A stretch of 63,702 bases of DNA, counting the filler, from Folioceros fuciformis (taxonomy: Eukaryota): NCBI GenBank assembly GCA_049999805.1. It is 17 parts of 17 records of this genome, joined end to end, with 100 filler letters (N's around TTAATTAATTAA, not from the genome) between each part and the next. Parts side by side here need not be neighbours in the genome. Positions count along the whole stretch, not along the records: positions 1 to 5,172 come from JBNGIO010006501.1; 16 more parts are not named here. The stretch is one strand, 5' to 3'. Under the pieces are notes generated by a model. The model made no database searches, was not told the origin of the DNA, and saw nothing but the letters and a program-made list of their open reading frames with translations. A program made the translations under genes and the position numbers. Of the stretch, positions 1 to 53,630 are shown in pieces (positions within the stretch are counted from its first letter, which is position 1; the number at the start of each line of letters is the position of its first letter).

Positions 1-112
1 GTGACTCTTCGTGACTCATCTCGTAGTGACTCTTCGTGACTCATCTCTCATACGCTCTCTGAGCATTTCCTTGTACAGTTTTCAGATTCACAATCCACAG
101 GATCAATTTACA
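1..112 (+). repeat. Probable 3' end of an LTR containing a 25-bp tandem repeat (copy at 5273-5384)
   Basis: GTGACTCTTCGTGACTCATCTC occurs at 1 and 26. The pyrimidine-rich segment ends ...TTTACA, where PPR-like sequence abruptly begins. No PBS follows. Confidence 0.4.
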
Positions 113-138
113 GTCTTGCCGTTCTCAATTTGAGACAG

Positions 139-291
139 GAAATGCGCAGGTTGAGTGCGATTGCGATTCCAGATGGGTATGTGTTTGTGGCTGCCCTCCA
201 GGCTTGTGCAAGGGGAGGAGATTTGAAGTCTGGGCGGTATGTGCATGCTGATGTGTTGGCTTGCAACAAACTAAATGTTCTCATTGCATAG
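139..291 (+). pseudogene. PLS-class PPR gene fragment (L-type motif)
   Basis: Manual translation EMRRLSAIAIPDGYVFVAALQACARGGDLKSGRYVHADVLAC...* fits the PPR pattern PD..F...L.AC...GDL..G..VH. It shares VFVAALQA with the PPR near 24860. Confidence 0.8.
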
Positions 292-1398
292 CTGGGGCAG
301 ATAAGAGGAGCGTCCTGATCCGGCTCACCGACTCCCTGCACAGTCTCCTTGCTTAGCTATGGCTACAACGAGACTTCAGTAACCTCAAATCAACAAGCCG
401 CCCGCTACAACAGCTGTTGCTCCCGTCGATGCGGCTACGGTTTCTTCTATGAAAATCTTGTTTTGATGTAGTTGATTCCGCCGAGCGAAACAATTCTGCT
501 CACGCGCGTTTGTCAGCCTGGCTGCGAAGTTCCATCCCCGGAATTCGGAGATCCGACCGTCGCCCTTGGCTTGTTGCAAGGCGTCCATTCCCGTGGGGCC
601 GCGGGATGCATTCTTCCAGCCTCCACAGCCACCCGTTCCTGCCAATCTCTCGAGTCGGAATTACTGCTGTGCCACCCTCCAGCAATGTACACATTGCTCC
701 AGGACTCGATTCATGGCCAACATTGGGACTCCGTGCCTCGTCCTCATCGGACTCAGCACCTAGCTCCTGAGCGACGCCGCCTGTGGCTGGTGCAGTGGCC
801 TGCCGTGGTCCGCGGTCTTCTCCGTCATGCCTAGATGCGTGGGCCGGCCCAAGTAGCTCGAGAAGCAGGCCACTTCCTGCCTCACAGCTCCGCCCTCCAG
901 ATGTCTTGCCACAGCGGCGATGCTGAATCCAACGTGAGCCCGGGCTGTACACATCGTGTGGCCCTCCTCCAGTCGCCGCCGGGATAGCCTTCCCCGCGAC
1001 TTCAATCCCGGTGGATTGCGCTCAGTGCTTCAAGATCGGGGCAGTCCGGTGCCACATCTCCCTGAAGGAGCGATCTTCATGTCAGGGCTTGCACCCAGGA
1101 ACGATGGGTCAGAACGATGGATAGTAGAAGTAGTAGCTAACAAGCACCGGCTCCTCCTCCAGTCTGAGATCCAGGGCCTTGGTGCTGGCCGCCTGCTGGT
1201 GTAGGAAGAGCAGATGCCAAAATGGCCGTGGGGCTGTCGCTGTTACCACTGCGTCCTCCAGCGAATCGTCCTCTTAAACGATTCACAGAACAGATGTATG
1301 GGCTGTGAATGTCCATAATCTCTGGATGCCTGATCTGCCAATGCCTATGATGCTGCGCATCGCGTGCTAGCTGTTTGCTTCTCCTATTGACTTAAAAA

Positions 1399-1854
1399 AT
1401 GCCTAGAAGACGGAGAGCCGCACGGTGCGTGGCCCCTCCCATTTCGCAGCTGCCAAGGGAACAATCCCATAACAATCCTCACAGGAATTGGGCGCCTCCA
1501 CAGCGTGATCAAGGGAGGGTCACTACCCATCGAAATTGGGTACCCCATGCTAGGGAACAAGGCACGACAAGTCTCTCTGAAATTCTTAGTGAAAGGAGAC
1601 AGTTTCTGCGTTGGGAGAATCCTAACAACAAAATTGCAGCATGGGAACAACACGGCCTTACCTTGCCCAGGCAAGGAGATGTGCCTCCCTATATCAATCC
1701 CAAAGCCATGGTTCATTGCTTCAATGAGATCAGTGAAAGGATCGATGCTGTAACCTGTATGCTTGAGAGCCTGCAACAACCGAGAGAGGAAACCCTACAT
1801 GTTCGGAGGCCACAGACGCCTCCACCACCCGAAAATTGGAACGATAAAACTTGA
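1399..1854 (+). CDS. Uncharacterised 151-aa ORF ('ORF0') ending 231 nt upstream of copia gag
   Basis: ATG in AAAAA-ATG context. An internal 16-aa repeat (HRNW.P..R[DE]QG) is kept through synonymous codons. C-terminal amphipathic helix and Pro-rich tail. Confidence 0.6.
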   Translation: MPRRRRAARCVAPPISQLPREQSHNNPHRNWAPPQRDQGRVTTHRNWVPHAREQGTTSLSEILSERRQFLRWENPNNKIAAWEQHGLTLPRQGDVPPYINPKAMVHCFNEISERIDAVTCMLESLQQPREETLHVRRPQTPPPPENWNDKT

Positions 1855-2085
1855 ACTTTGCATCGTTTGGAGCCACGAGACATACCTGCCAGAGAAGGTC
1901 ACGTCTGTTGGTGATGAATTGGCTTCATGTGAAGCTTGATAACCATGCAGGTTACTAAATAACCAACCAAGTGGTGCCAAAATACCTAGAAGGTTGTTGC
2001 TGTAGCTGGCGTTGTAAGGATCATAATTCTCACAGTCCACCTACAGGCACAACAGGGCAGGTATTAACACACTTCTTCCGCTGCA

Positions 2086-5000
2086 ATGGCAACTAACACA
2101 GCTAACATATCAGGAGTCGATTACAGAGATCGATTCAATGGAACCAAGTATAACATTTGGACAATCCGGATGAAGTCTACACTTGAGTTCAAAGAGGTAT
2201 GGAAGTACGTGTATGGTTCCTCACCTTGTCCCACACTAACTGCAGCCTCAACCTCTACGGCCACAACAAGCACGGCAGCTGTCACTCAAGCTGATGTAGA
2301 CCTCTGGAACCATGGAGATAGGACTGCAAAGCATCTGATCATCAATGCTTTAGATGAAAGCATGATGGATCATGCTGCAGGATATGACACATCCAAAGAG
2401 ATTTGGGATGGTCTGGCTAATCTCTACCAAGTTCAGAATGTCATGACCCTTGTAGAAGCAAGGATGAATTTTCAGTCCTTGCATTTGAAAGAAAAGGAGA
2501 GTGTTTCGGCTTACCTAGGAAAATTTAGGTACCTCCGTTCACAACTCTCACTCCTCGGCTCTAAGATGATAGAGCTGGATGCCATTGCACAACTGCTGGC
2601 CAATCTCCCTCAAAGTTGGGAGAGTTTTGCTTCACAACAAAACGGGCCCCTACAGACAGCTTCAGCTGCTGTCGCAGCGGGTGGATCTTCAACACTCACA
2701 ATTGCAGGTCTCTCAGCTTCAATGCTGCAAGAGGAGACCAGGAGAAGACTGAGCGCAGCCTCATCTTCAACTGTGAATTCTGACAAAGTGCTCCTGGCTG
2801 AAAGGAAGCCCAAATGGAGTAAGAAGGGAGGGCAAGGCAAACCTACTAGCATTAGCTACAACAAAGGTGATAAGAAGAAGAAGAAAGGAGCATGCAATTG
2901 GTGTCTAATTGAAGGGCATTGGGAGCGTGACTGCCGTAAGAAAAGGGCAGGTGAACCATGCAAGAACAAGCCTCACAAAACACATGTTGCTGAATCGACA
3001 AGCAGGACTGTACCTTCAATTATGATAGTATGCTTCCTTTCTACTCGTACATCATCCTCTTTGTGGTACTTGGACTCCGGAGCATCTGCTCACATATGCA
3101 ACAACATGAGTTGCTTCAAAACATTTGCTGCTGATTCCTCAGGGCAAGTTGTTATAGTGGCTAACGAGAGATCAGTTGCTGTGAAGGGCAAAGGGACAGT
3201 GATTTTACACACCTCTGTAGGAACAGATTTACACCTACGGGATGTCCTCTGCGTACCCTGCATGACCAAAAACCTGGTTTCAGTGAAGGCCCTTACCTCT
3301 AGCAACAATGTCACCTTCCTATTTACAAGACACGGCTGCAGGTTATTCTAGGGTGACACAACTGATCAATGCATCGCTGAAGGAACAGCGCAGGACGACT
3401 TGTATGTATTACAACTCTTACCTGCGGGCTCTTGTACCACCCCGTCGAGTGGGAGTAGTGTTGCTTGTGTGGCAGGCTCTTTTTCTTCGAGAACACTCTT
3501 GTGGCACATGCGTTTTGGCCACATGAATCTCCCAAAACTTCTGCGTCACACACAGGCTGATTATTTTAGAATAGGTGAAGGTCTCCCCAAATTAGGGAAA
3601 CAAATTCAAGTCTGTGAGTCTTGTGTTATGGGTAAGCACAAGTAGCTCCCCTTCACCAACAGTAACCCTACAAAGAGAAACCAGCCTGTTAGAATTGTTA
3701 CACGCAGACATATGTGGACCGCTAAGTGAACCTTCACTAGGTGGAGCAGAGTATTACCTGGTCATCGTTGACGATTATAGTAGGTTCACTCACACCTATC
3801 CACTGAAGAGGAAAAGTGAAGCATTCACTATCTTCCAGGACTTCAAAACAATGGCTGAATCATAGATAGGATCCAAAGTTCGCTGCTTACGGACAGATAA
3901 TGGGGGTGAGTTCAGCTCCAATCCTTTTAAGGACTGGTGTAAAGCTCATGGAATCATGCGTCAATACACGGTACCTTATACATCCCAACAAAATGGGATA
4001 GCTAAGAAGAAGATTGGAGACATTGCCAGCGCAGCAAGGACAATGCTCTATGCCTCCAATCTCCCCAAGCCCTATTGGGTTCAGGCTGCCGTAACAGCCA
4101 CCTACGTCATGAACAGGATGCACACATCAGCCATTCCGTTAGGGACAACACCATTTGAGTTGTGGCATAAGAGAAAACCAGGAGTGGCTCACCTAAGAGT
4201 TTTCGGTTGCACTGCTTGGGCCCTTGTTCCCCTTCAGGGAAGACCTAAGTTAGCGAAAAGGGCAACCAAGCACATCTTCGTCGGTTATGGAGATCAGGTG
4301 AAAGCATACAAATTGTATTCTCCCTCCACCCTTCAACTGACATATGCCAGGAGCGTTGTCTTCAACAAAGCTCTTGTCATATAGCGTGCTGTGGGAGTTT
4401 CAACTGCAATTGGAGACTCGAGCCAGCAGCCATCACGGGAATTTATCACTACACAACCAGACTTGTTCATGGGAGGAAAAAGTTCGGATTCTCACACATA
4501 TCCTGATGACGATAATCCCGATGACGATGATGACAACCCCGATCCCAGTGCTAGTTTCCAACTACCCACTCCAAGTGTTTTCTCTGGTTTTCAACCGGCC
4601 TTCATTGATCACAATTTTGGCTTGTATCCCCTTGCCCATGGACCGGTAGAATATGCCGATGCTAAGGAGGAGTTGCAAGACAGCACGACATTGCCACATT
4701 TGTCCCTTGCACTCGTGCCTCATGAACAGGGAGGCCGTCGCGATGAAGGGCATGCCCCTGTCCTCCCCCTCGACCTAGGATCGGGACGGCATGCAGATGA
4801 ACACGCTGCTGATCCTCTCAGCACTACGCGTAAGGCAGGAGAATCTATAGCACCCGGACATGGTAGACAGGGTCCACATGACATGGGCAAACCAGATCAA
4901 AGCTGAAGAGCGTGGGTGCAACGACCTCCACATGAGCAGACGAGGCGAACTGGAAACGGGCTTGGGTCACCACCGGTTGCACTTGCCAGCCCTCGCGCTA

Positions 5001-5172
5001 GGGATTGCGCTGAGCAAACTGCACATGACCTCTTTGCGCTGGCACAAGGTGGAACATCCCACTCCGGCATGCAATAGGATGCAGGCCCGGTCCCTCAACA
5101 TCGCCCATCCACACGGGAGCGTCGGGCTCCCGTTCGTTGGTCTCCTGAGCCCCCCATATCTAGATCCCATAT
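2086..5172 (+). mobile_element. Ty1/copia gag-protease-integrase region, decayed; RT lies beyond the contig end
   Basis: Zinc knuckle CNWCLIEGHWERDC, protease WYLDSGAS, LWHMRFGH, integrase HADICGP/DDYSR/RTDNGGEF, linker motif RPSTRERRAPVRW. In-frame stops at 3349, 3643, 3863, 4382, 4904 and 5075, plus a frameshift near 3650-3670. Confidence 0.95.
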
Positions 5173-5272
5173 NNNNNNNNNNNNNNNNNNNNNNNNNNNN
5201 NNNNNNNNNNNNNNNNTTAATTAATTAANNNNNNNNNNNNNNNNNNNNNNNNNNNNNNNNNNNNNNNNNNNN
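5173..5272. other. Artificial contig-joining spacer (first of 16)
   Basis: 44 N + TTAATTAATTAA (stops in all six frames) + 44 N. Identical spacers start at 10445, 18764, 26281, 31009, 33373, 35821, 37473, 42613, 44110, 48188, 50840, 52249, 53631, 58697 and 62179. Confidence 0.99.
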
Positions 5273-5410
5273 GTGACTCTTCGTGACTCATCTCGTAGTG
5301 ACTCTTCGTGACTCATCTCTCATACGCTCTCTGAGCATTTCCTTGTACAGTTTTCAGATTCACAATCCACAGGATCAATTTACAGTCTTGCCGTTCTCAA
5401 TTTGAGACAG

Positions 5411-5563
5411 GAAATGCGCAGGTTGAGTGCGATTGCGATTCCAGATGGGTATGTGTTTGTGGCTGCCCTCCAGGCTTGTGCAAGGGGAGGAGATTTGAAG
5501 TCTGGGCGGTATGTGCATGCTGATGTGTTGGCTTGCAACAAACTAAATGTTCTCATTGCATAG
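5411..5563 (+). pseudogene. PLS-class PPR gene fragment (duplicate of 139-291)
   Basis: Same sequence at offset +5272. Confidence 0.8.
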
Positions 5564-6670
5564 CTGGGGCAGATAAGAGGAGCGTCCTGATCCGGCTCAC
5601 CGACTCCCTGCACAGTCTCCTTGCTTAGCTATGGCTACAACGAGACTTCAGTAACCTCAAATCAACAAGCCGCCCGCTACAACAGCTGTTGCTCCCGTCG
5701 ATGCGGCTACGGTTTCTTCTATGAAAATCTTGTTTTGATGTAGTTGATTCCGCCGAGCGAAACAATTCTGCTCACGCGCGTTTGTCAGCCTGGCTGCGAA
5801 GTTCCATCCCCGGAATTCGGAGATCCGACCGTCGCCCTTGGCTTGTTGCAAGGCGTCCATTCCCGTGGGGCCGCGGGATGCATTCTTCCAGCCTCCACAG
5901 CCACCCGTTCCTGCCAATCTCTCGAGTCGGAATTACTGCTGTGCCACCCTCCAGCAATGTACACATTGCTCCAGGACTCGATTCATGGCCAACATTGGGA
6001 CTCCGTGCCTCGTCCTCATCGGACTCAGCACCTAGCTCCTGAGCGACGCCGCCTGTGGCTGGTGCAGTGGCCTGCCGTGGTCCGCGGTCTTCTCCGTCAT
6101 GCCTAGATGCGTGGGCCGGCCCAAGTAGCTCGAGAAGCAGGCCACTTCCTGCCTCACAGCTCCGCCCTCCAGATGTCTTGCCACAGCGGCGATGCTGAAT
6201 CCAACGTGAGCCGGGGCTGTGCACATCGTGTGGCCCTCCTCCAGTCGCCGCCAGGATAGCCTTCCCCGCGACTTCAATCCCGGTGGATTGCGCTCAGTGC
6301 TTCAAGATCGGGGCAGTCCGGTGCCACATCTCCCTGAAGGAGCGATCTTCATGTCAGGGCTTGCACCCAGGAACGATGGGTCAGAACGATGGATAGTAGA
6401 AGTAGTAGCTAACAAGCACCGGCTCCTCCTCCAGTCTGAGATCCAGGGCCTTGGTGCTGGCCGCCTGCTGGTGTAGGAAGAGCAGATGCCAAAATGGCCG
6501 TGGGGCTGTCGCTGTTACCACTGCGTCCTCCAGCGAATCGTCCTCTTAAACGATTCACAGAACAGATGTATGGGCTGTGAATGTCCATAATCTCTGGATG
6601 CCTGATCTGCCAATGCCTATGATGCTGCGCATCGCGTGCTAGCTGTTTGCTTCTCCTATTGACTTAAAAA

Positions 6671-7126
6671 ATGCCTAGAAGACGGAGAGCCGCACGGTGC
6701 GTGGCCCCTCCCATTTCGCAGCTGCCAAGGGAACAATCCCATAACAATCCTCACAGGAATTGGGCGCCTCCACAGCGTGATCAAGGGAGGGTCACTACCC
6801 ATCGAAATTGGGTACCCCATGCTAGGGAACAAGGCACGACAAGTCTCTCTGAAATTCTTAGTGAAAGGAGACAGTTTCTGCGTTGGGAGAATCCTAACAA
6901 CAAAATTGCAGCATGGGAACAACACGGCCTTACCTTGCCCAGGCAAGGAGATGTGCCTCCCTATATCAATCCCAAAGCCATGGTTCATTGCTTCAATGAG
7001 ATCAGTGAAAGGATCGATGCTGTAACCTGTATGCTTGAGAGCCTGCAACAACCGAGAGAGGAAACCCTACATGTTCGGAGGCCACAGACGCCTCCACCAC
7101 CCGAAAATTGGAACGATAAAACTTGA
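6671..7126 (+). CDS. Uncharacterised 151-aa ORF ('ORF0'), duplicate copy
   Basis: Protein identical to 1399-1854. Confidence 0.6.
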   Translation: MPRRRRAARCVAPPISQLPREQSHNNPHRNWAPPQRDQGRVTTHRNWVPHAREQGTTSLSEILSERRQFLRWENPNNKIAAWEQHGLTLPRQGDVPPYINPKAMVHCFNEISERIDAVTCMLESLQQPREETLHVRRPQTPPPPENWNDKT

Positions 7127-7357
7127 ACTTTGCATCGTTTGGAGCCACGAGACATACCTGCCAGAGAAGGTCACGTCTGTTGGTGATGAATTGGCTTCAT
7201 GTGAAGCTTGATAACCATGCAGGTTACTAAATAACCAACCAAGTGGTGCCAAAATACCTAGAAGGTTGTTGCTGTAGCTGGCGTTGTAAGGATCATAATT
7301 CTCACAGTCCACCTACATGCACAACAGGGCAGGTATTAACACACTTCTTCCGCTGCA

Positions 7358-10300
7358 ATGGCAACTAACACAACTAACATATCAGGAGTCGATTACAGAG
7401 ATCGATTCAATGGAACCAAGTATAACATTTGGACAATCCGGATGAAGTCTACACTTGAGTTCAAAGAGGTATGGAAGTACGTGGATGGTTCCTCACCTTG
7501 TCCCACACTAACTGCAGCCTCAACCTCTACGGCCACAATAAGCACGGCAGCTGTCACTCAAGCTGATGTAGACCTCTGGAACCATGGAGATAGGACTGCA
7601 AAGCATCTGATCATCAATGCTTTAGATGAAAGCATGATGGATCATGCTGCAGGATATGACACATCCAAAGAGATTTGGGATGGTCTGGCTAATCTCTACC
7701 AAGTTCAGAATGTCATGACCCTTGTAGAAGCAAGGATGAATTTTCAGTCCTTGCATTTGAAAGAAAAGGAGAGTGTTTCGGCTTACCTAGGAAAATTTAG
7801 GTACCTCCGTTCACAACTCTCACTCCTCGGCTCTAAGATGATAGAGCTGGATGCCGTTGCACAACTGCTGGCCAGTCTCCCTCAAAGTTGGGAGAGTTTT
7901 GCTTCACAACAAAACGGGCCCCTACAGACAGCTTCAGCTGCTGTCGCAGCGGGTGGATCTTCAACACTCACAATTGCAGGTCTCTCAGCTTCAATGCTGC
8001 AAGAGGAGACCAGGAGAAGACTGAGCGCAGCCTCATCTTCAACTGTGAATTCTGACAAAGTGCTCCTGGCTGAAAGGAAGCCCAAATGGAGTAAGAAGGG
8101 AGGGCAAGGCAAACCTACTAGCATTAGCTACAACAAAGGTGATAAGAAGAAGAAGAAAGGAGCATGCAATTGGTGTCTAATTGAAGGGCATTGGGAGCGT
8201 GACTGCCGTAAGAAAAGGGCAGGTGAACCATGCAAGAACAAGCCTCACAAAACACATGTTGCTGAATCGACAAGCAGGACTGTACCTTCAATTATGATAG
8301 TATGCTTCCTTTCTACTCGTACATCATCCTCTTTGTGGTACTTGGACTCCGGAGCATCTGCTCACATATGCAACAAGATGAGTTGCTTCAAAACATTTGC
8401 TGCTGATTCCTCAGGGCAAGTTGTTATAGTGGCTAACGAGAGATCAGTTGCTGTGAAGGGCAAAGGGACAGTGATTTTACACACCTCTGTAGGAACAGAT
8501 TTACACCTACGGGATGTCCTCTGCGTACCCTGCATGACCAAAAACCTGGTTTCAGTGAAGGCCCTTACCTCTAGCAACAATGTCACCTTCCTATTTACAA
8601 GACACGGCTGCAGGTTATTCTAGGGTGACACAACTGATCAATGCATCGCTGAAGGAACAGCGCAGGACGACTTGTATGTATTACAACTCTTACCTGCGGG
8701 CTCTTGTACCACCCCGTCGAGTGGGAGTAGTGTTGCTTGTGTGGCAGGCTCTTTTTCTTCGAGAACACTCTTGTGGCACATGCGTTTTGGCCACATGAAT
8801 CTCCCAAAACTTCTGCGTCACACACAGGCTGATTATTTTAGAATAGGTGAAGGTCTCCCCAAATTAGGGAAACAAATTCAAGTCTGTGAGTCTTGTGTTA
8901 TGGGTAAGCACAAGTAGCTCCCCTTCACCAACAGTAACCCTACAAAGAGAAACCAGCCTGTTAGAATTGTTACACGCAGACATATGTGGACCGCTAAGTG
9001 AACCTTCACTAGGTGGAGCAGAGTATTACCTGGTCATCGTTGACGATTATAGTAGGTTCACTCACACCTATCCACTGAAGAGGAAAAGTGAAGCATTCAC
9101 TATCTTCCAGGACTTCAAAACAATGGCTGAATCATAGATAGGATCCAAAGTTCGCTGCTTACGGACAGATAATGGGGGTGAGTTCAGCTCCAATCCTTTT
9201 AAGGACTGGTGTAAAGCTCATGGAATCATGCGTCAATACACGGTACCTTATACATCCCAACAAAATGGGATAGCTAAGAAGAAGATTGGAGACATTGCCA
9301 GCGCAGCAAGGACAATGCTCTATGCCTCCAATCTCCCCAAGCCCTATTGGGTTCAGGCTGCCGTAACAGCCACCTACGTCATGAACAGGATGCACACATC
9401 AGCCATTCCGTTAGGGACAACACCATTTGAGTTGTGGCATAAGAGAAAACCAGGAGTGGCTCACCTAAGAGTTTTCGGTTGCACTGCTTGGGCCCTTGTT
9501 CCCCTTCAGGGAAGGCCTAAGTTAGCGAAAAGGGCAACCAAGCACATCTTCGTCGGTTATGGAGATCAGGTGAAAGCATACAAATTGTATTCTCCCTCCA
9601 CCCTTCAACTGACATATGCCAGGAGCGTTGTCTTCAACAAAGCTCTTGTCATATAGCGTGCTGTGGGAGTTTCAACTGCAATTGGAGACTCGAGCCAGCA
9701 GCCATCACGGGAATTTATCACTACACAACCAGACTTGTTCATGGGAGGAAAAAGTTCGGATTCTCACACATATCCTGATGACGATAATCCCGATGACGAT
9801 GATGACAACCCCGATCCCAGTGCTAGTTTCCAACTACCCACTCCAAGTGTTTTCTCTGGTTTTCAACCGGCCTTCATTGATCACAATTTTGGCTTGTATC
9901 CCCTTGCCCATGGACCGGTAGAATATGCCGATGCTAAGGAGGAGTTGCAAGACAGCACGACATTGCCACATTTGTCCCTTGCACTCGTGCCTCATGAACA
10001 GGGAGGCCGTCGCGATGAAGGGCATGCCCCTGTCCTCCCCCTCGACCTAGGATCGGGACGGCATGCAGATGAACACGCTGCTGATCCTCTCAGCACTACG
10101 CGTAAGGCAGGAGAATCTATAGCACCCGGACATGGTAGACAGGGTCCACATGACATGGGCAAACCAGATCAAAGCTGAAGAGCGTGGGTGCAACGACCTC
10201 CACATGAGCAGACGAGGCGAACTGGAAACGGGCTTGGGTCACCACCGGTTGCACTTGCCAGCCCTCGCGCTAGGGATTGCGCTGAGCAAACTGCACATGA

Positions 10301-10444
10301 CCTCTTTGCGCTGGCACAAGGTGGAACATCCTGCTCCGGCATGCAATAGGATGCAGGCCCGGTCCCTCAACGTCGCCCATCCACACGGGAGCCCGACGCT
10401 CCCGTTCGTTGGTCTCCTGAGCCCCCCATATCTAGATCCCATAT
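7358..10444 (+). mobile_element. Ty1/copia gag-protease-integrase region, near-identical copy of 2086-5172
   Basis: Same domains and the same inactivating lesions; about 10 substitutions plus a 5-bp inversion. Confidence 0.95.
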
Positions 10445-18863: not shown

Positions 18864-20527
18864 TGCATCGTGTTCCCCAGAATGGAGAGCCTGTTCCCGG
18901 AGCTCTCAGGCTGCACCACCAGGCACACCACCTCGCGATTGTCCTCGTTTTCGACGACAATGTTCTCCACGGGAAGGCGCATCACCGCATCCCCGGCGAA
19001 GACGAAGCTCAGCCGAGGCAGACGCGACTTCCAATCCTCGGAGCCGCTCACGTTGAAGCAGAAATCCAGCACCTGGTCCGAGGACTCCACCACCGGGAAG
19101 CGCATTTGCCGCCGGAATTCCAGCCGCAGCAGTGTCACTACGGGAAGTGGCAAGTAGGACAGAGTGGTGCCCGAGTCGACGATGGTACCGCCCTCACCAT
19201 CCGGTCCCATGTTCCATACCGACCGGGCCACCGGCAGCTGGCGGTCACCCACGCTAACTCCAACTATCTGCACGTAGTAATAGGTCGAGCTGGTCGGCAG
19301 CGACAGCAGGGGCGTCCACTGCAGGCTAGAGTCGTCCAGCCGCGGGTCGTGCCCGAACACAATGCTGCTCGTCACCATCAGCGAGCTGGATCGCGGCACC
19401 AGGCAGTAGCTGAACTTGTTTCCATACAGCGAGCCCACCTGCGATGCCCAGGAGAGCTGGCCCTGCCCCAGCCCGAGAACTCCAGCCGCGCCCCGGAACA
19501 GGCCCTCGTTGCGATGTCCGCAGCCGAAGAGCACTGGAGAAATCTGGTCCACAGTTGTGCTGCCGCTATCGCTATCTCCGTTCCCTGAGCCGTTGCTGCT
19601 CACATCGTTGAGCGTGAAGGTCTCGTAGGCCAAGACGCCGGAGGTGTTGGAATGGTCGCCGTAGGAGTAGAAGAATCTGCAGGAAGAGTTCCTACGGGCG
19701 TCGCAGTTGGACCCCGGAGGCGGGTCCACATGGTCGCACTCCGGGGCGTGGCAGGAGACCGGTTCGAAGGAGCTGGAGTTGGAAGGGTTGAAGACTGGCC
19801 CCACCTGCTCGTAGCAGACTCGGCAGGGCTCGCACTGGAGCCAGTTGAGGTCGCTGCCTGTGTCTACAATCAGGGCAGTGGGCCTACTCGGCGTGCCGAT
19901 GCTCAGCTCCACGAAGTACTCGCCGGACCCCAAGGACAGGGCCGACCCCACTTTGCCTTGGAACGACTCTGACTCGGTGAGGAGCGGAGGGGACGGGTCG
20001 TAATGGAACCTGCGGATCTGACCCGTGCCCGAGCCCGTCCTAGTCTCTGTTCGTTCCCTGTCCTCCTGAAGGAATCGGGCAGCTCGCCGTGCGAAGATAG
20101 TGCTTCCGATCTGGGACATTCTGGCCGTGTCGCGACGAATCCAGGCCTTCAGCCGGCTAAATTCCATTGCAGCGTCATGCCGCTTGAGCCGGAAGTGATT
20201 GTTGAGGAGATAGTCCCGGTGTTTGAGCCGCATTCGGAAGGTGCTCGGTAACCTGGAGCTCTTTGTGGTAGAACCATCCGATGCCGAGTTCTGCCCCAGG
20301 ACCTGCGCTTGCAACTTGGCACGCCTGAGGTTATGATCCTGGGCACGTCTTGTTGGATTTCTGCGAGCGAGGCAGGCATACGGTTCCGGTGGTGTACTGC
20401 CGTCGACTGCGATGGAGAAATTGTGGTGCTCCTGTGACGCTCCTCCCATGCTGATGAAGACTCCCAAGGGCAGGAACAGAGCTAGTGCAATTGCAGCCAT
20501 AGTGATGAAGCGGAGAGGGGCTGCCAT
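18864..20527 (-). CDS. Secreted A1 aspartic protease (nepenthesin/ASPG-like), intronless, C-terminus cut by contig end
   Basis: Hydrophobic signal peptide, GSGEYFV, catalytic DTGSDLNWLQC and IVDSGTT, FGCG, FSYCL, SILGN. Confidence 0.95.
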
Positions 20528-23500
20528 GATCCAGTTTGGATCGTGATCAACTCAAGGAACGAATCCAGAGTGCACACGACTCCGAGTGTAACCAGAGAAC
20601 CCCCCAGAGAAGATTAATGATCGTGACCGATCGGCTGGATGCCGGAAAGATGAGAGTCTTCAAGGCCAAAGCTCCCGATCAATCATGGCACAAGTCTTGT
20701 CACAGTGGCTCCAATCCGGATCGGCAACGGCTCCACTTCCGTCGCCTCCGATGCTTTCGGCCTCAAGATCTGAACCACCTGCAGCTGCCACAAGCGGACA
20801 GGAAGCCGCGGGAGCTGCCGAGAACATTTAACTGCCACACGGAACACCAAACGTCCGACGGATTTGAATCTGATTGACCTGCGGCCTCAAGCTCCGGCTC
20901 TTCTGGTCTATCCAAGAAGACGAACACCTCCAGGGTCGACTACTGGACCTCCGCTTCCATCCCGTCCTCCTCAATGTTGTCCAGGCCAGCATGTGCGGCA
21001 ATACAAATCATTTTTGCTCCATAGCCTGACGCGCACGAATCTCACTTTCTTCCGCGCTTCTACGGACAATATAAATGCGAGCAGGTCAGATTTGGCTGAC
21101 CGAAACTCATGAACTTGCTGTCCATATCTGAACCCCTCCCAAGCCCTGTTTCTACCAGAAACCTGCCACAAGGACCAAATGCAGATGTCGCGTATTCAAG
21201 AAAAGAAAAGCAAAGCGCAGCTATCAGTCAGTTCGACAGACACTGGAAACAACAAATCGATTCCAACCAGGTGCCAAGCCAAACAGACATGAAATGCGAT
21301 TCCTTGCTTCATGCATCTATGATCGACTACGGTAGGCAAACTGTCAGAAAGTAACAAGGATAGAGAGGATTCGCAGAAACGGTACTGAGTGGAAAAGAAT
21401 TGAGACAGCACGCCACGACGCTAACCTCAATGTCCCTGTGCTAGATAGCGCTCGATCAGCACCACATCGCCTCCAATGTGATGCAACCAGAGCAACAAAC
21501 GCTGCCTCAAGCTTCCTGAGCGAAGAGTTTCGCAGCGTTTTCCAAGTAGTCTCACTTAGTCCTCTGTCGCAAACCAGTCCAAGCAGGGAAGCGTCCGTGG
21601 ACGGCAGAAGGGAATGACCGGGAAGAAATTGGATCGATAACGCGACAGGTTCGGTCAGGCCACGACCGGACGGGGACAGGTGGGACTCGAGTTTACACCT
21701 ACCGTCCTTGGAAGTCTCGTCTCCTGCTCACCGCACCGCCAGGCCAGGCCTCCGTCCCAGCGCCAGGAGCTGCAACGATCGCGCCAATTCTGCTGGCGTG
21801 CCAAAGAAATGGCTGACGGTGCAGACATCGTCAAAGGGATTAAGCCGGGCATCATCCGGGGAAGGTGTCGGCTAGCCTCTAGTTTTTTTAAGGCTCCGCC
21901 AGCCTTGCATGCAATCTCGCCTGGCTCCTCGCTGTAACCGTCCTTTTTCATCTGTTCCTCCCTTCGGCGCATCAGCACATATGCCGAGAAAGCCACCCCC
22001 CGCCATCATCTCCGCACTTGGGCAAAAATCTCCCATCACGGTCACGGTTGCCGCCAACAGAATTTTTTTTAATCTCCACCTGTGGCACGAGCCCAGCGCG
22101 TTTCTGTCCTTCACTGTGCGATCGGTTTTATCTGTTCCAGGCTCTCAGCCAGACATGTGTATACATAGATAGCCTTGCCTATGTCGTCGGTGACTGGTGC
22201 TTGCCTGTCAATTGACACGGTCAGAGATGCAACCCGCCAGCCTAAAATATACATTCCCACCGGCGATCTTTCTTTCTTTTGGCAAACATGGCATGGTGGT
22301 CGATGGCCCACAGGAGAGCAGTTCTACCTCCATAAAACAAAAACCGATCTCCAACTTCCAGGTTCCGAACCTTCAGATCTGCTCCAACAGCTTCAGGTAC
22401 AATTAGTCCTTTAGTCAAGTAGAGAGACCATCCACGGGAGAGCCTCACACAATAGCAAGGATTAAGTCTACTTCAGAAGTGATGGAGATAGCAAGCCTGG
22501 TCATGCTCAGCTGGACAGGACAAAATACCTAACCCTCTTGCCCAGCCAGACTTTTTCCAGGACTCCACATGATGTGCATTACGTGGTCAGCATCGACAGG
22601 CTGCCCTCAACGGGTCTCCATAGAGAAGAGAAGGGTACCATCCGCGCATCACTCAAGACACTGGGGCCATGAAATATCAATCCTCTTACCACCACCGGAC
22701 TCGTACAGAAGATTCGTCTCCCGGAAACAGGTGGGGCCGCATTGCTGCTGAAATCAGTCCCTTGTGTGTGAGCGTGAGGGTAGCCACCTAGACAAGCAAT
22801 CGGTTGGATGCAGCCGATGATGCTACTCTGCATGCCTCCAGGATGAACGTCAAGGGTGACCTGACAGTGTCTAGAGAAAACACGGTGTGTGATACAAGGC
22901 ACCAAGAGCGGCTGTCCAGCATGCCAGGAGAGGGCCACAAGAAACCATTTAGAGTGCGTCGTCTTGTGTGGCAAGCACATGAAATAACTGACCGGAGTGC
23001 AGAATGGAGACCCCTCTAGACGTGCACGAGCTGTCAGAGCTCTCGCTTTCTTATCGTATTCTTGTAGGTGGAGTGATTGATGTGAAGAAGGTTGTTTCGC
23101 TGATGAAGCTGGCCAAGTCGTGAGGCAAGTAGCTACGGTCCTTGGCCTGTGAGTCATGTGCGCTTTCGTGGGCCCCAAGTCCTCGTCGTGAACCACATAT
23201 TCCGAAAGTACATGTGCTACGCAACAACACTGGCAGCGAAGAACGACAGGGATTGCTGATGAACAGCACGCTAGTAGAGCCTTGTCAGGATGCCGGAGCC
23301 GGGTCTCTCTGACAAGACTTTGACACTGCTATCAAATGTGTACGTATGAGCACTTGAAATGAAAAGGTGTAGAAGGACCAAACAATTTTCTTGGGTCACA
23401 TCTACAACGCAGTCAGACAGTTTAGATCAGTCCTAATGGGAAAGGATGCACAGGCCAATGTGAATCCTGCACACAAACACACAGCAGTAAGGAGCCATGT

Positions 23501-24257
23501 TCTGCTGGTGCCCAACCTGCTGCTCTTCACAGAGTCACAGAAGGTCAAGGGTCATAGCCCCACAAATGTATTTGAGCCTTGTTACTTCAGGCAGAGTTGC
23601 CATCGTTTACTTGCTACAAACAATGCCCTCATAAAAGCACACACTGTGACTGCTCAACATCAATCCAAGTGCGAGCATTTTGCAACAGTCCCATCACAGT
23701 GCTCATGTGAGAAGAAATGCATTCACGTCGTCAGTCCAGCTAGGAATCCCTGCTAATAGCAATACACAAAGGATTTTCAACAAAACCTTCAGCTCCGAAG
23801 GTCGAGGTGCTTCCACTACACATGATCCAACACATGTCCAAAAATTCTCTCAAGGCACCAAGTTCCCACTAAACATAGTCATTCCCCCACCCAGGTAAAC
23901 AAGTCGTCATTTCTCTTGGGTACCATAGCTCATGACTTGCAAAGTCGGTTTGTGTTGCATGCCTCCGGTGAGAAGTAGCAAAATTGTGTTATGGAGCATC
24001 TTAACACGGTCTATGGTACCCCGATCCATGTGCTTGGTAGTCAGGACCGAAGGGCATATACTGAGAAGGGATCCGACAGGTCCATCCTCCCCGTCAACGG
24101 ATCCCTTAGCCCTTAGTAGAGAAACCACGTGCTGGTACTCGCACATCTCCTGTGCCATGATCTATTGATTCAGAAATTGTTACCCGCATGGAAGGAAGTC
24201 TTCTGCAGCCAAAAAACAAGCGAGGCAACATCTCGCGAGGCTACAAGGGAAGGGAAG

Positions 24258-25402
24258 TGCATTCGTGCTGGCTGCCTTGAACGCAATATCCACTCTTCTT
24301 TCTCCCACCAGAAATCTATGCACCGCCTTATTTACCTCGATGGTCGCCACTGCAGGTTTCTTGTTAGCTCCTGCTGCCAGTCTCTGTGTCTCAATGCTGT
24401 CTACAACAGCCCATCTACCTGCCTACCCTTTTGTAAGGCATCCATGCTTCCTTAGGCCCTCAGAAGGCAAGCCAAAGTAACGTCACCAACCAAAATGAGG
24501 CCCTCGTGCCCCATTTGTTCATATACAACAAGTGCCTTCTGGCCGAGCCCTTGCTGAACATACCCGGCAATCAGGGCCGTCCATGTCACCAGATTCATAG
24601 TGTTCGTGCGTTCAAAAAGCTGGTGTGCTTCTTTCATCTCACCACATTTTGCATACCCAGATACGTGGGCATTCAATGTCACCACATCCTTTCTTGCGAG
24701 GCTATCAAAAACCTGGCGTGCATCTTTCAGGTCGCCACACTTTGCATACATGTCCCCCAGGCAGTTGCCAACGAACAAGTCAGCAGGAGTGCCACTCTAC
24801 AACACATCTAAATGCACTTTTCTGCCCGATTCCAAGTCTTCCGCTGGCCTGAAGGGCAGCAACAAAGACGTGACCATTCGCCTTCACTCCTGACCTCAGC
24901 ATCTCAGGGTAGAGACGAATGGCCTCCCTAAGTTTCCCGTGCTTAGCATGTGCAGAGATTATGGAAACCCATATGAAGACATTCGGTTTACCCACCCTGG
25001 TGAACACGTCCATGGCCTCCTGCAACCAACCTCTACATGCATACATGTGCAAGATATGGTTCCCCAAGCAAGCATTCGACTGGTACCCAAATTTGGTGGT
25101 GAGGTCATGTACTCGTCGCCCCGCAACCAAATCCTTCTTAGCTGTGCACACTTACAGCACAGTGCTAAACACATCCTCAAAAACAGCAGAGCCAGTTCGC
25201 GACAAGGCTCCAACAGGCTCAAAAATCTTCCCTGCTGACACAACACGCTCACGGTTTCAGCCGTCACGACGCCCTTTTCAGATCCTGCACGCCTGCCGGG
25301 TTCAAGCTTGTCCGGAAAGCCAGACTCAGAAGGAGTGGCTCCCGAACACATTTGCATATCCAATTTTTGCATGTGGTCGCTGAGGCGTGACGACTTCTGC
25401 AT
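24258..25402 (-). pseudogene. PLS-class PPR pseudogene with E2 and the start of a DYW:KP domain
   Basis: PPR motifs (DMYAKCGDLKDARQVFD, VTWTALIAGYVQQG) split by stops and frameshifts. Manual translation of about 24422-24258 gives AGRWAVVDSIETQRLAAGANKKPAVATIEVNKAVHRFLVGERRVDIAFKAASTNA, then similarity stops. Confidence 0.9.
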
Positions 25403-26188
25403 TCGTTGAACATTACAATACAACACGTTAAAATGTCCGCAGTACTGTATGTGCGTGGAGTTTCGCTTACAGCGCTGAACGGATTGTCATCATTTTTTCT
25501 ATCGTGTTCCTGCTGTTAGCTTATGTGTCCCTCTTGCCAGTTCATCAATGCGAAATAACATCCATAAATTTGAAATGGCCTAAAATAGCTACCACGTGAT
25601 GGGAACGGTAGGCCCCTTTTGCCCTCCAGCAAGAAGGTGGTACGCAACGGGGTTCAGGCACTGACGGGAAGTTGGCCTCTAGGCTCATAACACTAATACG
25701 TTCATACTGTAATTGAAAATTTAGCGTAACTAAGCCTCATTATTTCTTTCTATAAAATATATTTAAGTATAAATAATATTAGATCTATATTCATTAGCTT
25801 TTATTTTTGATAAGCAGATCCTTTGTGGACCCAACAGATGGTTGCATGTGCAAAAGTTCTACTAAGAGCACCCGCTCCATCCTCCCTTCCGAAGCATTTG
25901 ATAGCAAGTAGTCCAATAGAATCCGTGCTTTACACAAGCCCTCCATGTGTTTGCAAAATCTGCAATTATTCTTGACAAGCAAAAGAACATGATATTCAAG
26001 AGTAAGAGTAGAGCTGCAAGTGTCTAATTTAGTAGGAGGTAAATGACAAGAGAAAAGGGCGCCAAGCATACAATCTATTGAATATAAAAGAAGAGCCCTT
26101 CATTTATTGCAGGGTGTAGCTTAGCCTTCACAAACTAAAAGACATCACACCTAATAAGTAAAAATATCCAAGGTGGTCAAGACGCTAC

Positions 26189-26280
26189 TGACAGGTCCTT
26201 AGTCATCAAAAATTCAATGGTTAAGAACTTCGTTGACAGGTCCTTAGTCATCAAAAATTCAATGGTTAAGAACTTCGTTG
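26189..26280. repeat. 45-bp perfect tandem repeat running into the contig end
   Basis: TGACAGGTCCTTAGTCATCAAAAATTCAATGGTTAAGAACTTCGT at 26189 and 26234, plus 2 nt of a third unit. Confidence 0.95.
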
Positions 26281-31108: not shown

Positions 31109-33372
31109 GGCGTGCTCAAGGTGGCAATCGCCCACCTTACAAACCAGGCTCTCCTCGCCCTGCATGGTCAGCCTCCAAGTCCAACAATGCCAAGCGAGGT
31201 CCTTGCACATGGTGCAGGATCCCAGGGCATGTGGAATCTGAATGCCGTAAGAAGCAGAATGGTGAACCCAAGCGAGAAGCTCCTCCATCTGCTCATGTAT
31301 CTTCAAAGAAAAGTACAGGGGCCATCCTCACAGTGTGTATGGTCTCTTCTTCTCAAGACAGACATGCCTGGTATCTAGATTCAGTTGCCACCACGCATGT
31401 CTGCAACACTCGCACAGCCTTTACCACTTTCAAGTCTTCTCCCAAGGGACACTTCGTTCTTTTAGGTGATGATAGTGGGCTATGCATTGAGGGCACTGGC
31501 ACAGTTGTCCTTCACCCTGCACAAGGCAAAACCATCACTCTGTTAGACGTCATCTTTGTCCCACAGATGGCCAAAAATTTGGTGTCTCTAAGACGCCTGT
31601 CTCCTCCTCTGCTTACCCTGGAGATGACAACTGATGGTCTTGCTCTGCGGGAGGCTGCTGCACCACACCAGTTATTGGTCACATGTACTCTCAAAAATGA
31701 CTTATATCAGCTCAACTTGAAGAGCAACCCCATCCAGCAGCTGAAGGCACCAGCTGCTCATGCAACAGCCATTAGCTCTCCTAGTGAGACACAACTGTGG
31801 CACTGCCGACTGGGACATGTTCACATTCAACGTCTCCGGACTCTGCCTGCTTCATCCTTGTACAAGACACCTCTTCACTTCAAGTCAGAGACTTCCATCT
31901 TTTGTGAAGCCTGCATACAAGGGAAGCATCATAAGGCTCCACATCCCAGTCAAGATGCAACGAGAGCTACTCAGTTACTTCAAACAGTGCACACTGATCT
32001 TTGTGGCCCCATGTCCACACCTTCCCTCAGTGGTGCCCTCTACTTCATGCATCTCATTGATGACTGGAGTCGCTTTACAGTCACTTACTTTCTCAAGCGC
32101 AAGAGTGAAGCTTTCTCTTGTTTTCTGCTGTACCTCTCGTATGCCCAGCGCTTTACAGGTCAGAAATTGAAATGCTTGAGAAGTGACAATGGCGGGGAGT
32201 TTACCTCAGGAGAATTCACCGACTTTTGCTCACGGGAGGGTATTCTACGGCAACTTACCGTTCCCTACGAGCATGAACAAAACCCTCTACCTGAGAACAA
32301 AAACAAGGTCACCCAAGCTGCTGCCAAATCTATGCTGCATCTTGCCAGGCTTCCCCGGTGCTTCTGGGCAGAAGCTGTTGCCACAGCCGTCTACATTCAA
32401 AACAAGCTACCCACTCGTGCCTTTGCTGACGCCACACCCTTTGAGAGATGGACTGGTGTCAAACCTCGAGTGGACCATTTGCGGATCTGGGGCTGCCCAG
32501 CATATGCCCATACACCTGATGAAGTCAGACGCAAGATGGACTTCAAGGCAACCAAACATCTGTTCATTGGTTATACAGAGGGCATCAAAGGCTACAAACT
32601 CTATGACCCCCTGAATCGTCGTTTCCTGCATGCCAGAAATGTGATCTTTGATGAGTAGTTTCTTCTGCAAGCCTCAGAAAAGAGCAGAGACGTACCTGGC
32701 CTGGAACGCCTCACAACTGATGAACAAGATGCATCTTCAACACATGATGAGCACTTGGTTACCTCTCAGCCAGCACACTCTGCCACTGAACAGCCTGCTG
32801 CTGCCTTCCCGGAAGATGAACCTGACCTCACTGCTGATGACTCTACCTCGGAGACAAGCGACCAGGACAACAAGCCTCAGCATGAGGAATATGACAATGA
32901 GACTGACAACAGTCCCCCACATTCTCCTCCATCTGAAACTGAGGAGAACCAGGAGCAGCCTCACTCCCAGGCTGCTGAAGAAGTGGTTCAAGCACCGCAG
33001 GAACCCAGGAGATCTGCAAGGACACATACAACGGATCCAAGTCAGTGGACTCACAAACCGCTAAGCTATGAACTGGATGAGGAGCATCGAAGAAAACATG
33101 CAAACCTCGCATCCAGCTCAGATGCCCCTGGAGCTCAGGACTTGCACATACCTCGTAATTATGTTGCATGCGCCCTGATGGCAGCCCAGGACCTCGGAGA
33201 ACCTGCCACACTGAAGGAAGCATTGTCCTCTCCAGAAGGTAAGCTCTGGAAGGTGGGTATAGACTCTGAATATCAGTCTCTCATCGACAACCAAACTTGG
33301 GAGCTGGTAGACCTGCCTCCAGGACGCAAACCACTCACAGGAAAGTGGGTGTTCAAGAAGAAGTTGAACCCC
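31109..33372 (+). mobile_element. Ty1/copia internal fragment (zinc knuckle to RT start), damaged copy
   Basis: CTWCRIPGHVESEC, WYLDSVA (G to V), HTDLCGP, RSDNGGEF, NQTWELVDLP. TAG at 32656 where the sister copy has CAG. Confidence 0.95.
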
Positions 33373-33472: not shown

Positions 33473-35820
33473 AGGCCACTCATACTCGTGGTCGTGGAGC
33501 CTCCTCCAGCAATCCTGCATGAGCCATGTTCGTTTCTCGAGGACGAGGACGGCGTGCTCAAGGTGGCAATCGCCCACCTTACAAACCAGGCTCTCCTCGC
33601 CCTGCATGGTCAGCCTCCAAGTCCAACAATGCCAAGCGAGGTCCTTGCACATGGTGCAGGATCCCAGGGCATGTGGAATCTGAATGCCGTAAGAAGCAGA
33701 ATGGTGAACCCAAGCGAGAAGCTCCTCCATCTGCTCATGTATCTTCAAAGAAAAGTACAGGGGCCATCCTCACAGTGTGTATGGTCTCTTCTTCTCAAGA
33801 CAGACATGCCTGGTATCTAGATTCAGGTGCCACCACGCATGTCTGCAACACTCGCACAGCCTTTACCACTTTCAAGTCTTCTCCCAAGGGACACTTCGTT
33901 CTTTTAGGTGATGACAGTGGGCTATGCATTGAGGGCACTGGCACAGTTGTCCTTCACCCTGCACAAGGCAAAACCATCACTCTGTTAGACGTCATCTTTG
34001 TCCCACAGATGGCCAAAAATTTGGTGTCTCTAAGACGCCTGTCTCCTCCTCTGCTTACCCTGGAGATGACAACTGATGGTCTTGCTCTGCGGGAGGCTGC
34101 TGCACCACACCAGTTATTGGTCACATGTACTCTCAAAAATGACTTATATCAGCTCAACTTGAAGAGCAACCCCATCCAGCAGCTGAAGGCACCAGCTGCT
34201 CATGCAACAGCCATTAGCTCTCCTAGTGAGACACAACTGTGGCACTGCCGACTGGGACATGTTCACATTCAACGTCTCCGGACTCTGCCTGCTTCATCCT
34301 TGTACAGGACACCTCTTCACTTCAAGTCAGAGACTTCCATCTTTTGTGAAGCCTGCATACAAGGGAAGCATCATAAGGCTCCACATCCCAGTCAAGATGC
34401 AACGAGAGCTACTCAGTTACTTCAAACAGTGCACACTGATCTTTGTGGCCCCATGTCCACACCTTCCCTCAGTGGTGCCCTCTACTTCATGCATCTCATT
34501 GATGACTGGAGTCGCTTTACAGTCACTTACTTTCTCAAGCGCAAGAGTGAAGCTTTCTCTTGTTTTCTGCTGTACCTCTCGTATGCCCAGCGCTTTACAG
34601 GTCAGAAATTGAAATGCTTGAGAAGTGACAATGGCGGGGAGTTTACCTCAGGAGAATTCACCGACTTTTGCTCACGGGAGGGTATTCTACGGCAACTTAC
34701 CGTTCCCTACGAGCATGAACAAAACCCTCTGCCTGAGAACAAAAACAAGGTCACCCAAGCTGCTGCCAAATCTATGCTGCATCTTGCCAGGCTTCCCCGG
34801 TGCTTCTGGGCAGAAGCTGTTGCCACAGCCGTCTACATTCAAAACAGGCTACCCACTCGTGCCTTTGCTGACGCCACACCCTTTGAGAGATGGACTGGTG
34901 TCAAACCTCGAGTGGACCACTTGCGGATCTGGGGCTGCCCAGCATATGCCCATACACCTGATGAAGTCAGACGCAAGATGGACTTCAAGGCAACCAAACA
35001 TCTGTTCATTGGTTATACAGAGGGCATCAAAGGCTACAAACTCTATGACCCCCTGAATCGTCGTTTCCTGCATGCCAGAAATGTTATCTTTGATGAGCAG
35101 TTTCTTCTGCAAGCCTCAGAAAAGAGCAGAGACGTACCTGGCCTGGAACGCCTCACAACTGATGAACAAGATGCATCTTCAACACATGATGAGCACTTGG
35201 TTACCTCTCAGCCAGCACACTCTGCCGCTGAACAGCCTGCTGCTGCCTTCCCGGAAGATGAACCTGACCTCACTGCTGATGACTCTACCTCGGAGACAAG
35301 CGACCAGGACAACAAGCCTCAGCATGAGGAATATGACAATGAGACCGACAACAGTCCCCCACATTCTCCTCCATCTGAAACTGAGGAGAACCAGGAGCAG
35401 CCTCACTCCCAGGCTGCTGAAGAAGTGGTTCAAGCACCGCAGGAACCCAGGAGATCTGCAAGGACACATACAACGGATCCAAGTCAGTGGACTCACAAAC
35501 CGCTAAGCTATGAACTGGATGAGGAGCATCGAAGAAAACATGCAAACCTCGCATCCAGCTCAGATGCCCCTGGAGCTCAGGACTTGCACATACCTCGTAA
35601 TTATGTTGCATGCGCCCTGATGGCAGCCCAGGACCTCGGAGAACCTGCCACACTGAAGGAAGCATTGTCCTCTCCAGAAGGTAAGCTCTGGAAGGTGGGT
35701 ATAGACTCTGAATATCAGTCTCTCATCGACAACCAAACTTGGGAGCTGGTAGACCTGCCTCCAGGACGCAAAACACTCACAGGAAAGTGGGTGTTCAAGA
35801 AGAAGTTGAACCCCGATGGG
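33473..35820 (+). mobile_element. Ty1/copia internal fragment, near-identical sister of 31109-33372
   Basis: Open from 33526 to the contig end (protease DSGA, integrase, RT start KWVFKKKLNPDG). One upstream in-frame TGA in gag at 33520-33522. Confidence 0.95.
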
Positions 35821-43420: not shown

Positions 43421-43432
43421 TGGTATCAGAGC
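43421..43432 (+). promoter_or_regulatory. Primer binding site (tRNA-iMet)
   Basis: TGGTATCAGAGC immediately after CA. Confidence 0.93.
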
Positions 43433-43555
43433 ACCATCGATCCTGGAGCTATGCACATATTGCTATAATAATCTGCATTAAGACTCATCTTTAAAATGAG
43501 TTCTTGGTTTTCTTGTTTGTTCAAGAAATGCATTTTGTAATTAGCATTAAGCGAG

Positions 43556-44092: not shown

Positions 44093-44209
44093 AGTGGGCA
44101 TTACAACTCNNNNNNNNNNNNNNNNNNNNNNNNNNNNNNNNNNNNNNNNNNNNTTAATTAATTAANNNNNNNNNNNNNNNNNNNNNNNNNNNNNNNNNNN
44201 NNNNNNNNN

Positions 44210-53233: not shown

Positions 53234-53249
53234 TGGTCTCAAAGCAGAG

Positions 53250-53630
53250 TGGAGCGGGCGCCAAGGTGGGCGCCAGAAATAACGCGTTCTCCCTGTGGGG
53301 GGAGCAGATCACAACCCGCAGTAGGTGCGGCTAGTACGGCGCTGAGGAGAGCGGAGTGGGGCGCTGAGGTGCGCGTCGAAAATGATGCGTTCTCCTCGTG
53401 GAGGGGAGCGGCTCACAACCCGCGGCAGGTGCGGCCGGTACGGCGTCGAGGAGAGCGGAGCGGGTGCACAACCCGCGGTAGGTGCGGCCGGTATGGCGTC
53501 GAGGAGGGCGGAACGGGCGCACAACCCGCGGCAGGTGCGGCCGGTACGGCGCCGAGGAGAGCGGAGCGAGCGCACAACCCGCGGCAGGTGCGACCGGTAC
53601 GGCGCCGAGGAGAGTGGAGCGGGCGCACAA
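53250..53630. repeat. GC-rich 53-bp minisatellite with A-B-A-B-B-B-B structure
   Basis: CACAACCCGC anchors at 53310, 53414, 53467, 53520 and 53573, with a partial unit at 53626. A second unit of about 51 bp precedes the first two. Confidence 0.92.

Follow-up and report, generated by a model that had tools for sequence, protein, structure and literature searches.

A candidate lineage-specific 5' extra open reading frame upstream of gag in a low-copy Ty1/copia family of the hornwort Folioceros fuciformis

Organization of the locus and its host element

The DNA analysed here (the window) is a stretch of 63,702 nucleotides, filler included, from Folioceros fuciformis (assembly GCA_049999805.1). 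It comprises 17 separate records, most of which carry retrotransposon fragments, joined by linkers of the form N44-TTAATTAATTAA-N44 (for example, at 5173-5272). The first record carries on its plus strand an open reading frame, here called ORF0, followed by the gag gene and part of the pol gene of a retrotransposon (Table 1). A preliminary description of this DNA had reported an intact 151-residue ORF that ends 231 nt upstream of the gag ATG, and this arrangement was confirmed, with ORF0 at 1399-1854 on the plus strand and the gag ATG at 2086. The assignment of the downstream element to Ty1/copia was also borne out by its domains, which follow the copia order: the ORF at 2086-3348 matched Retrotran_gag_2 (PF14223) with E = 1.5e-25, and Pol_BBD, gag_pre-integrs, rve, and SH3_retrovirus come after gag, with the record ending at 5172 before RT and RNase H. 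ORF0 and gag have a reading frame in common, but six stops intervene, and we rejected the possibility that ORF0 is an N-terminal extension of gag. The spacer between the two holds three further ATGs.

Table 1. Features of the ORF0 locus, with positions counted along the window
Feature	Position	Strand	Remarks
Single-copy sequence upstream of the element	396-1290	.	Depth 75 (run X1) and 46.8 (run X2), versus 270-1000 for the element
Leader, start of the internal region	1291-1398	+	LTR end and iMet PBS directly before 1291 in other copies
ORF0	1399-1854	+	151 codons plus TGA (1852-1854); ATG at 1399
Protein-level tandem repeat in ORF0	1456-1563	+	Residues 20-55; period 16 aa (48 nt); ~2.25 units
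Spacer between ORF0 and gag, non-coding	1855-2085	+	6 stops in the shared frame; 3 ATGs
gag-protease ORF, copia type	2086-3351	+	421 aa; ends at an in-frame TAG
Integrase part of pol (gag_pre-integrs, rve, SH3_retrovirus)	3352-4906	+	Broken; without RT and RNase H
ORF0 of record 2	6671-7126	+	Sequence identical to ORF0 of record 1

The preliminary description had counted ORF0 as intact in two copies, a claim that did not survive comparison of the first two records. Record 1 (1-5172) and record 2 (5273-10444) are equal in length, agree in their terminal bases and in their upstream flank, and differ at 19 positions. They represent one locus that was entered two times (whether as alleles, as strains, or as duplicate assemblies), and record 2 therefore lends ORF0 no separate support. 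ORF0 contains none of the 19 differences; about one would be expected there, and their absence is thus uninformative. The six differences within gag are all non-synonymous, which indicates that the locus is not under purifying selection. A second near-duplicate pair of records occurs in the window at 31109-33372 and 33551-35814 (99.5% identical).

The copy in the window is dead: its pol contains three TAG codons in frame (at 3349, 3863, and 4382) as well as a frameshift near 3596-3645, and every allelic difference in its gag changes an amino acid. Any function of ORF0 belongs to the active past of the family. Reassignment of stop codons was considered as the source of the pol TAGs and was rejected, because the in-frame stops over all records (12 TGA and 10 TAG) look like ordinary decay. 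Other copies of the element were viewed by way of contigs from publicly available DNA sequencing runs (X1 and X2) on this organism. In the commonest genomic form, at ~3.5 times single copy, a single base replaces the 571 bases of 2253-2823, a net in-frame loss of 570 nt that removes gag residues 56-246. Over 2824-4598, the identity of this form to the window is 99.4%, and the window alone has the full-length gag. The element family is small (low-copy) and looks either non-autonomous or decayed. The closest gag elsewhere in the window (61938-60724, minus strand) has 33% identity; the record reaches only 240 nt upstream of it, a stretch without a PBS and uninformative on ORF0. A protein search with gag yielded two distant matches at longer lengths (27% and 23% identity), no relatives at near lengths, and none in metagenome or viral contigs.

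Neither an LTR nor a PBS had been found in the preliminary description, which had cautioned that ORF0 might not lie inside the element. That caution is largely lifted by the other copies and still applies to record 1 itself, in which a search for an iMet PBS found none and which offers no 3' LTR. The contig on 1291-1477, with a depth of ~316 in X1 and 305 in X2 (~6.5 times single copy), carries an LTR-like end and then TGGTATCAGAGC in front of the shared sequence, and the ORF0 ATG lies 108 nt past the point where this PBS-bearing contig joins the window sequence. The ORF0 region proper was covered by a contig on 1502-1949 at depths of 382 and 296 (~5-6 times single copy); over these 448 nt, it differs from the window by 12 substitutions and is free of gaps. 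In other copies, ORF0 sits within the internal region of the element, upstream of gag and in the sense orientation. At position 1477, eight contigs of run X1 with a summed depth of ~22 times single copy all carry T instead of the C found in the window. The genomic copy number of the N-terminal part of ORF0, which includes the repeat, may be higher than that of the remainder of the element.

The single-copy sequence at 396-1290 is not the LTR of the element family and matched no Pfam family. The junction at 1291 was supported by none among the contigs listed; a single-copy contig on 396-1291 runs on for 108 letters that are unmatched to the window. The copy in the window is either 5'-truncated at 1291, absent from that sample, or mis-joined. 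The coding sequence at 40-291, which flanks the element, is presumably PPR-like, and a Pfam search with this 82-residue flank gave no match. Positions 169-260 match many contigs, a run guessed to be RNA among their sources. In run X5, which was guessed to be RNA, no contig was found on 1385-5172, a result that is uninformative on expression.

Elsewhere in the window, a nearly intact copia element at 53731-58696 has an iMet PBS at 53778, gag at 54341-55288, and a pol ORF of 1107 residues. Its gag and pol are in the same frame and are split by a single in-frame TAG at 55286, which is either a single decay mutation or a site of gag-pol stop-codon readthrough. The 550-nt leader of this element is without a plus-strand ORF of at least 60 residues. 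At 53243-53630 lies a DNA tandem repeat with units that are 79-90% identical; long frames are open through it on both strands, and their peptide repeats are 92-93% identical.

Reading frame, internal repeat, and predicted protein of ORF0

The length of ORF0 exceeds chance. When the 794-nt leader (1292-2085) was shuffled with its dinucleotides preserved, a plus-strand ORF of at least 151 residues starting with ATG appeared in 4 of 2000 shuffles, and an ORF of that length on either strand in 27 of 2000. Two further frames are open across the same stretch, one of 120 residues on the plus strand (1391-1753) and, in codon-aligned antisense, one of 136 residues (1384-1794). Codon usage was compared by a log-odds score, for which the 17 long ORFs of the window served as the training set. 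At 0.036 per codon, the ORF0 frame scored best of the six, with the two other open frames at -0.026 and -0.037; this value is greater than that of 98.8% of off-frame windows, yet it stands only at the eighth percentile among true in-frame windows. An excess of A over T of the kind typical of the gag sense strand begins at ~1400. The start codon of ORF0 has an A at -3, and the stretch from 1291 to this start contains seven upstream ATGs, which open uORFs of 4-14 codons.

The N-terminal part of ORF0 contains a protein-level tandem repeat with the pattern R-E/D-Q-S/G-x4-H-R-N-W-x-P-x2. A 48-nt repeat (1480 versus 1528) had been described previously, and HRNW indeed begins at both positions; the codon pairs that had been listed for it (cac/cat, agg/cga, cct/ccc, cgt/agg, ggg/ggc, and gat/gaa) are all correct. 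The repeat is somewhat longer than had been stated, with residues 20-39 (REQSHNNPHRNWAPPQRDQG) aligning to residues 36-55 (RDQGRVTTHRNWVPHAREQG) at an offset of 16 residues. The two units are identical at 10 of 20 residues and at 31 of 60 nucleotides, their differences are distributed 8, 7, and 14 over codon positions 1, 2, and 3, and three Arg-Arg pairs are encoded by AGG in one unit and by CGT or CGA in the other. The BLOSUM62 score of this alignment (60) was reached by none of 5000 shuffles of the whole protein, for which the maximum was 56, and by none of 10,000 local shuffles in each of three N-terminal segments of ORF0. The remaining five frames of the same DNA gave scores of 18-29, and Tandem Repeats Finder found no DNA-level repeat at ORF0. 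In simulations of neutral decay, in which 29 random sites were mutated in one unit, 10 identical residues were kept in 1 of 20,000 cases, a figure that is somewhat favourable because the alignment had been picked by its protein score.

As a control, the same score was examined in all 167 windows from open frames of at least 100 residues in the other records, and a value of at least 60 was found in nine of them, ORF0 counted. Five of the others are DNA repeats with 70-93% nucleotide identity, and only three besides ORF0 have low nucleotide identity (56% or less). One of the three consists of true PPR gene repeats (56% nucleotide identity) with an excess of third-position differences, the same signature as that of ORF0. 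Another is an RG-rich, low-complexity gag tail, and the third is an uncharacterised open frame rich in serine and leucine, located in the record at 48288 (53% nucleotide identity), in which the differences by codon position are 17, 16, and 19. A repeat protein with YAKCG... units in the record at 18864-26280 (minus strand) is one that we take to be clearly of the PPR type. On the basis of the shuffles and the neutral-decay simulations, the ORF0 repeat is statistically real, in agreement with the preliminary suggestion that its pattern points to selection on the protein. The retention of amino acids while the repeat DNA diverged indicates that the ORF0 frame was translated into protein for a long period. 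The length and the repeat both favour a coding history for ORF0, which was probably once a real small accessory gene.

Variants of ORF0 in other copies were also inspected. Among those listed, three are synonymous (A7, Q68, and L70) and four are non-synonymous (V11M, S16L, P27S, and K102R); all seven are transitions, and none creates a stop. No purifying selection is visible in these counts, which, with 139 further differences besides those listed, are too few to tell dN/dS from 1.

The protein encoded by ORF0 has a mass of 17.7 kDa, a pI of 10.0, contents of 12.6% Pro and 12.6% Arg, and the N terminus MPRRRRAAR. AlphaFold2 without an alignment gave a pLDDT of 51, with residues 1-57 below 50, and predicted helices at residues 59-70, 77-84, and 101-126. 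According to its composition and this model, the product is probably small, basic, Pro/Arg-rich, and mostly disordered, with a C-terminal helix at residues 101-126. GW or WG dipeptides define the Argonaute-hook proteins, which are related to silencing; ORF0 has neither dipeptide, its five Trp residues occurring in N-W-A, N-W-V, R-W-E, A-W-E, and N-W-N, and its identification as such a protein was rejected.

Searches for homologues of ORF0 gave no Pfam family at E ≤ 1, no relative among 5.8e9 proteins at near lengths, no match among PDB sequences, and no relative in metagenome or viral contigs. In the Atlas, no entry reached 0.9 (best, 0.88, with a low recognition of 1690), and a search of 1-5172 with Rfam gave no match. 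An exhaustive HMMER search of 1.84e9 representatives returned six proteins, the best with E = 5e-12. The four that were fetched are bacterial repeat proteins, which we take to be FG-GAP/VCBS-like, and these matches were rejected because one stretch was matched repeatedly and the score thereby inflated. When ORF0 was compared with one of the bacterial proteins by BLASTP, a single 22-residue stretch (WENPNNKIAAWEQHGLTLPRQG) with nine identities was aligned to each repeat unit in turn. The lack of ORF0 relatives is weak evidence, since the libraries are also without close kin of gag (best, 27% identity). Within the window, a similar layout was noted at 43421-44092, where an iMet PBS is followed after ~125 nt by a 178-residue ORF starting with MPRR, in a record that ends at 44109. 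This ORF matched no Pfam family and has a predicted coiled-coil-like stretch at its end. Kinship between ORF0 and this ORF, which starts at 43556, was rejected (E = 1.1, with no meaningful alignment of the leaders).

Explanations for ORF0

The best explanation for the kind of feature seen here is a 5' aORF, or eORF-5'F, of plant LTR retrotransposons. Our preferred reading, held tentatively and with slightly less than even confidence, is that ORF0 is a lineage-specific 5' extra ORF of a low-copy Ty1/copia family, situated between the tRNA-iMet PBS and gag. By analogy with the Tekay 5' aORF proteins, its product might act in trans on the RNA or cDNA of the element, with nuclear import or nucleic-acid binding as conceivable roles; a targeting, anti-silencing, or particle factor had been offered in the preliminary description as examples of what it might be. 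ORF0 would then be translated from the genomic RNA via leaky scanning or reinitiation past the short uORFs, and gag could be translated by reinitiation or from a separate transcript. A more specific proposal, that ORF0 is a functional 5' accessory gene in a Ty1/copia element of a non-seed plant, encoding an Arg-rich, largely disordered protein with an HRNW-type repeat that acts on element RNA or cDNA or against host silencing, seems to us unlikely.

It is also rather doubtful that ORF0 arose by chance in a non-coding leader kept for RNA functions in cis (packaging, dimerisation, or reverse-transcription signals), with a peptide repeat that is coincidental. A chance origin would fit the openness of three of the six frames across the same stretch, a codon score for ORF0 that is only marginally above those of the two other frames, the seven uATGs, the ratio of 3 synonymous to 4 non-synonymous changes among the variants listed, and the lack of homologues in Pfam, the 5.8e9 proteins, the 1.84e9 representatives, and the Atlas, and one has to consider that ORF0 was picked after a scan of 63.7 kb; against this, an ORF of such length arose on the plus strand in only 4 of 2000 shuffles, the repeat score in none of 5000 (and none of 10,000 in each of the three segments), the repeat is visible in the ORF0 frame only, and its differences are in excess at third positions (14 versus 8 and 7). 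A leader conserved for its RNA would account for its presence in more copies than gag-pol, as expected of a cis element in non-autonomous derivatives, and its predicted fold is slightly better than that of shuffled sequences (z = -1.95, equalled by 1 of 20 shuffles), but it belongs to no Rfam family.

The repeat could instead have been shaped in a donor gene, from which ORF0 would be a captured coding relic (a fragment of a host gene or the gag N terminus of another element, acquired by transduction or template switching) without any role for the element. We regard such a capture as improbable, although it would reconcile the past protein selection evident in the repeat with the fact that present selection is not visible. 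Gene capture by LTR retrotransposons is documented in the portion of PMC7264820 drawn on here, and the leader is a mosaic in copy number, with position 1477 at ~22 times single copy, above gag; the search of 1.84e9 representatives, however, yielded no donor gene from plants or elsewhere, and ORF0 begins with an ATG of its own (A at -3) and ends in a stop, unlike an open-ended fragment. The similar layout of the 178-aa MPRR ORF, ~125 nt past a PBS elsewhere in the window, would speak for capture, but that ORF and ORF0 are not significantly alike (E = 1.1), nor do their leaders align meaningfully. Least of all do we expect that translation of ORF0 merely throttles or times that of gag, with the peptide sequence being irrelevant, a reading to which we give very little credence. 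Long leaders with uORFs are known in retroviruses, and ORF0 and gag do share an RNA on which ORF0 comes first, with short uORFs nearby; a regulatory uORF independent of sequence would nevertheless not preserve amino acids through synonymous change, and 151 codons are long for one.

Comparison with extra ORFs of known plant retrotransposons

Extra ORFs are common and well documented in plant LTR retrotransposons, and to our knowledge a function has been proven for none of them. The better-described 5' ORFs belong to gypsy elements. One is ORF1 of Ogre (Ty3/gypsy, Tat lineage), a sense-strand ORF upstream of gag; it differs from ORF0 in belonging to the gypsy superfamily and in being much larger, and ORF0 is without a Pfam domain. 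OTA elements carry eORFs, and 57% of the Ogre eORFs have a plant mobile domain, according to the data of PMC6317226 used here.

For copia elements, the relevant part of the survey by Neumann et al. 2019 (PMC6317226) reports eORFs in 582 of 5410 elements, falling into 45 mutually dissimilar groups that are mostly without known domains, and defines eORF-5'F (5', forward) as one eORF class. The eORFs of that survey were subject, in the same part, to a threshold of 250 codons, a search cut-off and not a biological criterion, and ORF0 (151 codons) falls below it. The only lineage-typical copia eORF reported in that part is the 3' forward ORF of SIRE. The env-like ORF of Sireviruses (SIRE) resembles ORF0 in being an extra ORF of a copia element and differs in lying 3' of pol (eORF-3'F, in 74% of SIRE elements in the part of PMC6317226 cited), whereas ORF0 lies 5' of gag. 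Word searches of the open-access literature found no description of a 5' ORF in copia or hornwort elements. In the sections of their article that bear on this question, Vicient and Casacuberta (PMC7264820) set one-off transductions apart from aORFs that are present in most copies. For ORF0, the figures that bear on copy-wide presence are a depth of ~5-6 times single copy over 1502-1949 without gaps and the lack of stops among the seven variants listed, in which individual copies are not told apart.

The case for ORF0 rests on two statistical signals within one sequence, at a dead locus of a family with a handful of copies. A short 5' copia ORF constrained at the protein level would contribute an example from a plant lineage that has been poorly sampled, and it would demonstrate that genes of this kind escape surveys with a 250-codon cut-off. 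A close parallel in layout and predicted character comes from the Tekay chromoviruses (Ty3/gypsy), in which, as far as the sections of PMC11728184 considered here (citing Steinbauerova et al. 2011) describe them, 5' aORFs occur in sunflower Tekay 13-2 and in rice Retrosat-2/RIRE3, and the aORF is present in 500 of the 523 elements of its group. The encoded proteins are described there as Pro-rich and ~92% disordered; they carry an NLS and three helices, and their sequences are not similar between species. ORF0 shares with these aORFs, to the extent that they are characterized in those sections, a position in the sense orientation between the 5' LTR/PBS and gag and a lack of similarity to known domains, and their Pro-rich composition, basic NLS-like motif, and disorder with a few helices resemble the predicted character of the ORF0 product. 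The Tekay aORFs differ in belonging to gypsy elements and in encoding ~400 residues, compared with 151 in a copia element for ORF0, and the search of 1.84e9 representatives with ORF0 showed no sequence similarity to them. If it is true that ORF0 was functional, it would represent among copia elements what the 5' aORFs so far characterised represent in gypsy elements such as Tekay and Ogre.
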